A DNA stretch of 64,000 bases from Clostridia bacterium (GTDB taxonomy: Bacteria; Bacillota; Clostridia; Oscillospirales; CAG-272): assembly GCA_017461745.1 (NCBI GenBank), contig JAFTXE010000059.1:7304-71303 (forward strand), read 5' to 3'. Positions 7,372-9,260 of the stretch are shown piece by piece. The position numbers were made by a program, and so were the translations under genes. Every line of letters starts with the position of its first letter. Positions within the stretch are counted from its first letter, which is position 1. The notes under the pieces were generated by a model, which ran no database searches, was not told the DNA's origin, and saw only the letters and a program-made list of their open reading frames with translations.

Positions 7372-7887
7372 ATGAAGGTACTCGTTATATATTCGACCAA
7401 ATGGGGCGTCAGCAGAGCCTGCGCGGAAATGCTTACGGATAAGCTGACACCCACCTTTGACGTAACGCTTTGTGATATTCAAGACGAGCCGCCGTCTCCT
7501 GAGGACTTTGACGTTGCGGTTATAGGCGGCTCAATAAGAATGGGCTCTTTGAATAAGAAGCTTAAGGCTTATCTTAAGTCAAATATTGACAAGCTGAACA
7601 AGATTCATACGGCGCTGTTTATTTGCTGCGGATTTTCGGAAAATTTTGACGACTACGTATCTATGCAGTTCCCTAAAGCAATTAATGCGGATCTCGGTAT
7701 TCACTTCTTTGGCGGAGAATTAAAGCCGCAGAAGCTTCACGGCATTGACAAGCTTATCCTTAAGATGGTCCGCTCGGAAGCTGCTCGTGACGATTTTGAG
7801 ACTCCCGACCCTGATCATCCTCCGCTCCCTGAAATAATTCCCGAAAACATTTCAAGACTTGCGGACAGCATCAGAGCACTTTTATAA
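7372..7887 (+). CDS. Flavodoxin-domain protein (HemG/Flavodoxin_5-like)
   Basis: VLVIYSTKWGVS, VIGGSIRMG, FGGELK. Confidence 0.8.
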   Translation: MKVLVIYSTKWGVSRACAEMLTDKLTPTFDVTLCDIQDEPPSPEDFDVAVIGGSIRMGSLNKKLKAYLKSNIDKLNKIHTALFICCGFSENFDDYVSMQFPKAINADLGIHFFGGELKPQKLHGIDKLILKMVRSEAARDDFETPDPDHPPLPEIIPENISRLADSIRALL

Positions 7888-7957
7888 ATTCGTTATTTTT
7901 ACATATTTGCGATGCCTTTGATTTTTAGTTTTGTTGAAGTTGACATACACAAAAAAC

Positions 7958-7986
7958 TTGACAAATCGGCAAAAATGTGGTATCAT
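7958..7986 (+). promoter_or_regulatory. Sigma-A promoter of tRNA-Lys
   Basis: TTGACA (7958-63), 17-nt spacer, TATCAT (7981-86) with TGn extension. Confidence 0.8.
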
Positions 7987-8009
7987 ATATAGGTAGCGCA
8001 AATACGCTT

Positions 8010-8085
8010 GACCCACTAGCTCAGACGGTAGAGCACTTGACTTTTAATCAAGGGGTCCGGAGTTCGAGTCTCCGGTGGGTCACCA
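8010..8085 (+). tRNA. tRNA-Lys (anticodon UUU)
   Basis: 76-nt cloverleaf: acceptor gacccac/gtgggtc, anticodon arm cttga-cTTTtaa variant loop ctTTTaa-tcaag, T arm cggag-ttcgagt-ctccg, encoded CCA. Confidence 0.97.
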
Positions 8086-8089
8086 AGTC

Positions 8090-8119
8090 AGCGGTAAACT
8101 TTAGGGTTTACCGCTTTTT
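8090..8119 (+). terminator. Intrinsic terminator after tRNA-Lys
   Basis: agcggtaaac (8090-99) pairs with gtttaccgct (8106-15), followed by a T-run. Confidence 0.85.
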
Positions 8120-8128
8120 CTGTATAAA

Positions 8129-8224
8129 AAAGCCGAAAAAACTGCATGGTCATACTACGGGTCGATAGGATTTACGGTCTCATCCATCAATTGACTCTGT
8201 AATATAATGCAGCCTTTCGGCTTT
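8129..8224. ncRNA. Candidate structured RNA (long rod with internal loops)
   Basis: Nested pairings: aaagccgaaa/tttcggcttt, ctgcat/atgcag, ggtca/tgact, gat(a)gga/tccatc, around a 12-nt loop tttacggtctca. Confidence 0.5.
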
Positions 8225-8401
8225 GCTTTTTTATGAAGAAAATTTTGTCATTATGGTTCATGAATAGCAAAAGATACTTCTGTAACGTTACTCGTAAGAT
8301 ACTATATCACAATATTACCGTCATGGTATGCTGTTACATAAATTGAAATTTCGTTTGCAAATGACATTTCCATATTCCCACCTCGTCAGAATGCAGCTTG
8401 T

Positions 8402-9166
8402 TTATCTCTTTTTATAAATCACAAGCTCGGGATTTTCTCCGTTTTCTTCGTAGGTGCAGACTAGTAGGAAATCCATATTTCCCGCAATGCCAAAACAACG
8501 GTTACCGCCGAATTCGCATTCAAGCTGATTAGCGAGATAGGTAGTATTATCATCAAGGAATTTTACCTTTTGTCCGTTTGGGAGCGAGTATTCCATATTG
8601 ATATAACCGCCTACAAGAAAATTGAGCGTCTTGACTTCGGGCATTCCTTCAATATGTAAATCGTTAAATTCACGAATAAGCTGCTCTTTGAATTTCTTGA
8701 AATTCTCATCACCGCCAAGCTCTGCATAGCGTTTCCAATAATTAAGCTTGGGAAGATGCTCGTCAAAATAAGCTCTTGCCTGCTCCTTTGGCCAATTTTC
8801 ATTCGACATATGACCGACCAAGAAATCGGTCAGCTCTTCAAGACTTGTATAGCAGAAATTGCCGTCAGCGTAGCACCACTTGCAGTATTCCTCGTTGAAA
8901 AAGCCATTGGTTTCTTTGCTTATATTACTGTCCTCAAGCGGCATACCGCAACATTGACAGATAAGATTTCTCGGCGAGCCGAGAAGCGTATTGATCGATA
9001 CGTCAAACTCTTTTGAGAGGAGCTTCAGCGTTTCCGTGTTCGGTATAGTTTCACCATTCTCCCAACGGGAAACAGCCTGCCTTGTAACAAATATTTTTTC
9101 CGCAAGTTCCTCTTGAGAGAGTCCTTTTTTCGTTCTGAGTTCTAAAATAATATCCTTCGTTTCCAT
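8402..9166 (-). CDS. XRE-family HTH regulator fused to a zinc ribbon and an extra C-terminal domain
   Basis: LSQEELAEKIFVTRQAVSRWENG (HTH_3), CQCCGMP...CKWC zinc ribbon. Start placed at METKDII after RBS aaggcggtg. Confidence 0.85.
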   Translation of the reverse strand: METKDIILELRTKKGLSQEELAEKIFVTRQAVSRWENGETIPNTETLKLLSKEFDVSINTLLGSPRNLICQCCGMPLEDSNISKETNGFFNEEYCKWCYADGNFCYTSLEELTDFLVGHMSNENWPKEQARAYFDEHLPKLNYWKRYAELGGDENFKKFKEQLIREFNDLHIEGMPEVKTLNFLVGGYINMEYSLPNGQKVKFLDDNTTYLANQLECEFGGNRCFGIAGNMDFLLVCTYEENGENPELVIYKKR

Positions 9167-9260
9167 AAAATCACCGCCTTGTATTTTGTGATTATATTTT
9201 ACCACAGATTGCCGCAGACTGCAAGCAACTGTCTGTTGCTGTCAGATGTAAAATTGAAAT

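Follow-up and report, generated by a model that had tools for sequence, protein, structure and literature searches.

Gene context of the spacer

Coordinates throughout refer to the window, i.e. the whole stretch of 64,000 nt of DNA that was analysed, in which a 285-nt spacer separates two convergent genes. On one side is a plus-strand tRNA-Lys(UUU) gene (8010–8085; found by ARAGORN, and by Rfam as tRNA with 70 bits), and on the other a minus-strand regulator gene with HTH_3 and Zn_ribbon_2 domains according to Pfam (8402–9205, 267 aa, the stop-codon end lying at 8402). The tRNA gene has a near-consensus promoter (7958–7986, plus strand) and, by terminator scan, its own terminator hairpin (8090–8115, plus strand); tRNA and terminator are given as context, both being outside the putative relic described below. 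Other neighbours were assigned by Pfam as flavodoxin-like, deaminase-like, AraC regulator and GH3 glycosidase genes. The source assembly is a 2.5-Mb MAG, 90% complete, of a genome that may still hold an intact element elsewhere.

The 3′ side of tRNA-Lys was a synteny break in every relative examined (9/9), with unrelated genes beyond it. A search for an integrase adjoining tRNA-Lys in the relatives found none, the neighbours being unrelated housekeeping genes. The pattern fits a variable, insertion-prone site or rearrangement hot spot at the tRNA-Lys 3′ flank, although one with no integrase in view.

At the level of the genus, synteny holds for the flavodoxin gene, the promoter and tRNA-Lys, but the region 3′ of the tRNA varies by species (loci L073–L081), the genes seen there being of GATase, nuclease/phosphatase, HPF, NadA and APH type. 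Matches to the HTH_3 + Zn_ribbon_2 homolog came in two separate pieces in two genomes (L068/L070 in G580, L069/L071 in G582); the G582 pieces are on different contigs, one of them with an internal stop. In some members of the genus, rearrangement or decay of this gene is a possibility.

Two short ORFs were considered in the spacer. The first, of 37 aa on the plus strand (8233–8346), has neither a ribosome-binding site nor a Pfam hit and was taken as a chance occurrence. The second, of 22 codons on the minus strand (8310–8378), begins at 8378 with a strong GAGGTGG-type ribosome-binding site and has its stop inside the −10-like word discussed below; it overlaps with the remains of the adhesin-like ORF and is unlikely to be a real gene.

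Fold and strand preference of the rod

The spacer holds a 96-nt rod (8129–8224) that folds far better than shuffled sequence and is more stable on the minus strand. Folded alone (8116–8228), it reached −36.4 kcal/mol on the minus strand versus −18.4 ± 3.1 kcal/mol for 200 shuffles (z = −5.9), and −32.6 kcal/mol on the plus strand (z = −4.8). For the whole of 8122–8309 (188 nt), the z-scores were −3.7 and −3.1 for the minus and plus strands, respectively.

Read on the minus strand, the rod-shaped hairpin extends over 8126–8224 according to its fold and to a covariance model (R1, see below). It consists of an outer helix (8207–8221 with 8132–8147), a middle helix (8198–8205 with 8151–8158, and 8193–8195 with 8162–8164), an apical helix (8182–8188 with 8164–8171) and a loop (8172–8181). 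A run of six U (8126–8131), the tail of an intrinsic terminator, lies directly 3′ of the outer-helix 3′ strand; on the plus strand, the U-run after the rod is shorter and interrupted. A preliminary description of this DNA had listed four nested helices, of which three (8129–38/8215–24, 8142–47/8207–12 and 8164–70/8183–88) recur in the minimum-free-energy fold with support from homologs. The one listed third (8148–52/8192–96) is absent, its place being taken in the fold and in the closest homologs by the middle helix given above. The remaining sequence features of that description are all there, namely a 12-nt loop, the GCC-GAAA-GGC alternative, U-runs on both strands, the word TGATATAGT at 8301–8309 (minus strand) and a palindrome at 8282–8291, and the rod is indeed separate from the tRNA-Lys terminator at 8090–8115.

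A long imperfect inverted repeat in a MAG might also be a MITE- or REP-like palindromic repeat, or a chimera of assembly. However, the rod is single-copy in its own genome by both BLAST and covariance model, and, as would be expected of an RNA, its fold is strand-asymmetric owing to G-U pairs. Furthermore, a 92-kb contig (L088) assembled independently from a different sample shows 100% identity over 7980–8420, covering both junctions. The spacer arrangement is thus not an assembly artefact, and we regard a repeat or chimera as scarcely credible. In a search for strain variants of the spacer, this identical contig was the only other assembly found to span it, and look-ups by the HTH and deaminase proteins for further strain assemblies returned no matches.

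Homologous rods in DUF3268 leaders

An Rfam scan of 7800–8600 at E up to 10 gave tRNA-Lys only, a Bacteroidales-1 row (17 bits, E = 1.9) being discarded as chance, and the likeness to skipping-rope RNA put forward earlier was not borne out. Homologs of the rod were nonetheless present in other genomes. BLAST against 400 genomes of the order yielded three partial matches to the rod 5′ strand (the 3′ half as read on the plus strand), and at all three loci the rod comes directly after a strong match to RF02966 (90–103 bits), with a U-run, a ribosome-binding site and a small gene immediately behind it. A two-word pattern scan of 185,579 species added 36 further loci from Lachnospiraceae, Oscillospiraceae, Acutalibacteraceae and others, with an identical layout wherever the context was visible. 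Pattern scanning selects for conserved words; loci were also gathered through RF02966 alone, from 150 genomes of the class and 150 genomes of another family. Every locus collected in this manner carries the rod, in some cases as variants with compensatory changes in the middle helix, together with the invariant words or near variants of them, and rod, U-run, ribosome-binding site and gene were all there in the 13 RF02966 loci examined (13/13).

RF02966 is the DUF3268 RNA, which belongs to the set of motifs published by Weinberg et al. in 2017 (PMC5737381). A crystal structure of its k-junction has been reported by Li et al. in 2023 (PMC10573300), who describe the RNA as one of unknown function. 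The homologous rods stand just upstream of the ribosome-binding site of a DUF3268 zinc-ribbon gene (PF11672, E about 1e-50) in conjugative elements of gut Clostridia. This gene is followed by a sigma-factor and/or S26 signal-peptidase gene and preceded by large surface-protein genes, as in conjugative elements. The order of parts is a 121-nt Rfam motif, a linker of ~ 12–18 nt and a rod of ~ 100 nt with its U-run (L002, L007, L014, L039, L060–L064, L082–L086); the rod domain is not covered by the 121-position Rfam model. A U-run of 4–8 follows the rod in 25/25 distinct homologs, and wherever the context of a homolog can be seen, the rod forms the terminator domain at the 3′ end of a cis leader, before the gene.

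In the DUF3268-leader rods, the 5′ strand and apical loop are nearly invariant and the 3′ strand is variable. The window rod is closest to those of a metagenome contig (L060) and a Eubacteriales MAG (L039), each of which has a full RF02966 match (80.8 and 79.9 bits, respectively) and a PF11672 gene (E = 9e-51). Together with the window they form a subtype that keeps this 5′ strand but pairs it, in a shifted register, with an unrelated 3′ strand.

With a gathering score of 65.3 bits, RF02966 gave no row in window positions 7800–8600 (E up to 10) or in the whole of the window’s own genome, whereas the same search scores 80–112 bits in intact loci. Likewise, querying the own genome with the DUF3268 protein of L060 found no DUF3268 protein.

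Covariation and covariance model

Among 23 distinct rod sequences (window excluded), 95.5% of cells held standard pairs, compared to 31–47% when partners were slid by 1–3 columns. In seven rod pairs both partners vary, most of these pairs lying in the apical helix, and the result was similar with the window included; the existence of homologs with compensatory changes supports the preliminary description on this point. The covariance model R1, built from 23 sequences with the window, L039 and L060 left out, matched the window at 8126–8223 of the minus strand with 47.9 bits (E = 2e-9, or 9e-8 in the genome), all 107 model positions being aligned, and reached only 17.7 bits on the plus strand. 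Covariation and the strand-asymmetric model score therefore support the earlier suggestion of a minus-strand, RNA-level structure ending in a U-run, and on the strength of these sequence comparisons we conclude that the rod is a real RNA structure of minus-strand orientation.

An antiterminator was also considered as a possible reason for the near-invariance of the rod 5′ strand; in it, a conserved word of the motif junction, complementary at 9–10 of 11 positions, would pair with the outer-helix 5′ strand. There was no covariation in 34 leaders, in which the commonest combination at the variable position is a C-A mismatch. Because this position fails to covary with its would-be partner, the antiterminator pairing is not supported.

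Remnants of a truncated leader in the window

Window positions 8124–8266 (minus strand) show 88% identity to the intact leaders of L060 and L039 (E = 4.5e-39), and correspond to 1665–1807 of L060. The aligned segment sets in near the 3′ end of the motif and runs on through linker and rod into the U-run: the motif remnant (8240–8266, minus strand; L060 1665–1691) corresponds to about the last 27 of 121 model positions, and the linker to 8225–8239 on the same strand. A second colinear match, adhesin-like ORF debris at 8254–8314 (minus strand), aligns to L060 1071–1131. This match is short (61 nt, 74% identity, E = 6e-6), with a single difference in a core of 24 nt. Tblastn of the adhesin-like debris gave 18/47 with in-frame stops and a GNVTEVSF-like repeat motif kept; similarity at the protein level, weak as it is, may continue to about 8400. 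At the other end, homology stops at about 8120, where intact loci have their ribosome-binding site and where the window has the tRNA-Lys terminator instead.

Two colinear matches in the same orientation imply an internal deletion of about 530 bp, and RF02966 misses the window because this deletion took roughly 80% of the motif. The window has no k-junction core, native promoter, ribosome-binding site or DUF3268 gene, and is the sole such orphan among about 45 loci seen. The truncated form was looked for in the genus (64 genomes), in the order (400 genomes) and in the 185,579-species pattern scan, and apart from intact leaders nothing was found. The spacer itself (8086–8401) had no real match in 24 genus genomes and 16 genomes of other families, and the similarity of HTH-gene homologs within the genus is lost at the stop codon.

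We consequently favour, with a probability of about 0.8, the reading that the rod is a leftover, the orphaned terminator domain of a catalogued DUF3268 leader RNA from a conjugative element, and that it now serves as a terminator. In intact elements, an adhesin-like gene, a promoter, the DUF3268 RNA, a ~ 100-nt rod with its U-run, a ribosome-binding site and the DUF3268 zinc-ribbon gene follow one another, with a sigma-factor and/or signal-peptidase gene behind. Of such a locus the window has lost, through the ~ 530-bp internal deletion, the native promoter, most of the RNA motif (~ 80%) and the last part of the adhesin-like gene; a second break at about 8120 took away the ribosome-binding site and the operon, leaving the rod and its U-run intact.

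The window rod is about 10 kcal/mol weaker than that of its nearest relative (−36.4 versus −46.7 kcal/mol in L060) and 18 kcal/mol weaker than a majority-type leader, which fits relaxed constraint. Differences from the closest intact leaders are unevenly distributed. A 58-nt stretch covering the rod 5′ strand (8175–8232, minus strand), with an invariant 12-nt word (8191–8202) and a loop word with a UGAGAC core (8177–8185) inside it, is free of them: none of the 17 differences from L060 in 145 columns falls here (P about 0.002 under random placement), and the remainder differs by about 20%. Continuing selection for something more specific than a terminator could have frozen this stretch, but constraint within the donor element before stranding would explain it equally well. 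A promoter in the frozen 5′ strand was looked for by eye and rejected; there is a TTGACT word, but no workably spaced −10 on either strand.

Present role of the rod

On the minus strand, the rod would still work as a Rho-independent terminator, at which transcription from the HTH/zinc-ribbon gene would end about 280 nt beyond its stop codon, and on the plus strand it could form a weaker back-stop behind the tRNA-Lys terminator. Terminator scan and folding found the rod to be the only hairpin with a U-run between 8402 and the tRNA; a simple terminator scanner does not call it, its loop being too long. Homologs of the HTH/zinc-ribbon gene in the genus have their own short terminator within a few bases of the stop codon, and this is missing in the window. 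Most likely, to judge by this arrangement, the rod now terminates the HTH/zinc-ribbon gene, and it may back up the tRNA-Lys terminator in the other direction.

Alternatively, the rod could be inert debris, neither a working terminator nor an RNA gene, that has simply not eroded so far. Its divergence of about 12% from the nearest intact copy and its loss of 10 kcal/mol in stability agree with this, as do the stops littering the adhesin-like ORF fragment and the position in a variable region adjoining a tRNA gene. However, a hairpin of −36 kcal/mol with a G+C-rich base and six U should stop bacterial RNA polymerase regardless of where it came from, and as the sole such signal downstream of the HTH gene it makes complete inertness highly unlikely.

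Promoter-like word and the case for a free-standing sRNA

The extended −10-like word TGATATAGT (8301–8309, minus strand) is 75 nt upstream of the rod and is possibly a fortuitous promoter. The window contains 27 extended −10 words (TGNTATANT), compared to 11.9 ± 3.0 in shuffled sequence, so that about half of them are probably real promoters; the excess also suggests that TG-extended promoters are common in this organism. In the preliminary description this word and the palindrome had been treated as signals, but in intact loci both align to adhesin-like coding sequence and are not conserved: the palindrome (8282–8291) corresponds to G-N-V-T codons of the intact ORF, and the −10 word aligns to I-V-I-C codons.

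The same description had proposed a free-standing sRNA of roughly 170 nt. In its present form, this reading would have an independent sRNA of about 175–185 nt run from the extended −10 (8309–8301, minus strand) to the U-run of the rod, as a domesticated, trans-acting leader fragment that might, for example, bind whatever factor recognises the frozen 5′ strand and loop. It can draw on the share of such words that are probably true promoters, on the intact rod and U-run, and on the 58-nt 5′ strand left unchanged relative to intact leaders. Nevertheless, the word has no −35 box and, like the palindrome, aligns to coding sequence in intact loci and is not a conserved signal; no second genome with the truncated form emerged from the genus, order and pattern-scan searches given above, the rod is weaker than intact copies, and the window’s own assembly offers neither a DUF3268 gene nor the RNA as a target. 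With homologous rods serving as terminator domains of cis leaders, and with ~ 80% of the motif, the promoter and the gene lost from the window, the proposal, although partly right in form, is not supported as regards a free-standing sRNA, and we consider an sRNA of this kind unlikely. Still more improbable than either the sRNA as such or inert debris is the notion that the host keeps an sRNA made from the new −10 which retains the frozen 5′ strand and loop and titrates the factor reading the rod, as a chromosomal decoy against incoming conjugative elements of this type.

Comparison with known systems

Taken as the stranded terminator domain of a DUF3268 leader, the relic would explain every feature listed in the preliminary description. 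This has little consequence for biology at large, although a misleading candidate for a new sRNA class is thereby set aside, and the relic would provide one example of mobile-element debris giving a host gene a terminator. More practically, functional studies of DUF3268 RNA should use the full ~ 245-nt transcript (motif and rod), and annotation by RF02966 alone misses such shortened copies.

Some terminated riboswitch leaders act in trans as sRNAs, such as SreA and SreB of Listeria, and the minority reading, that of a terminated leader fragment living on as an sRNA, would have its model in these. Leaders of the SreA/SreB type retain a complete sensor domain and a conserved promoter, however, both of which the window relic has lost. 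Intrinsic terminators between convergent genes are a second point of comparison. The window rod resembles them in its stability, its G+C-rich base, its six U on the minus strand and its place between convergent 3′ ends, but its stem-loop of ~ 96 nt is several times the usual length, and has internal loops and a conserved apical loop of 10–14 nt.

Among the motifs of the 2017 set with 3′ terminators are skipping-rope, drum, FuFi-1 and DUF3800-I (PMC5737381), which the parent DUF3268 locus resembles in kind, with its conserved, structured gut-Firmicute RNA and a terminator at the end. The window itself has no Rfam match to them (E up to 10), and no sequence relationship with them was found. The earlier comparison with skipping-rope RNA was thus wrong as to the match yet close in kind, since DUF3268 RNA is likewise a terminator-ended gut-Firmicute motif from Weinberg et al. 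2017.

The nearest known system is the DUF3268 leader. Compared to it, the window has no RF02966 match; gene, ribosome-binding site and promoter are missing, as is ~ 80% of the motif with the k-junction core. The parent leader is already catalogued (RF02966), and by its alignments the window element is a truncated orphan copy of that leader’s terminator domain, homologous to the domain that follows the DUF3268 RNA. The two have in common the same invariant 5′-strand word, loop word, U-run and orientation, and alignment still reveals in the window what is left of the motif, its last ~ 27 nt.
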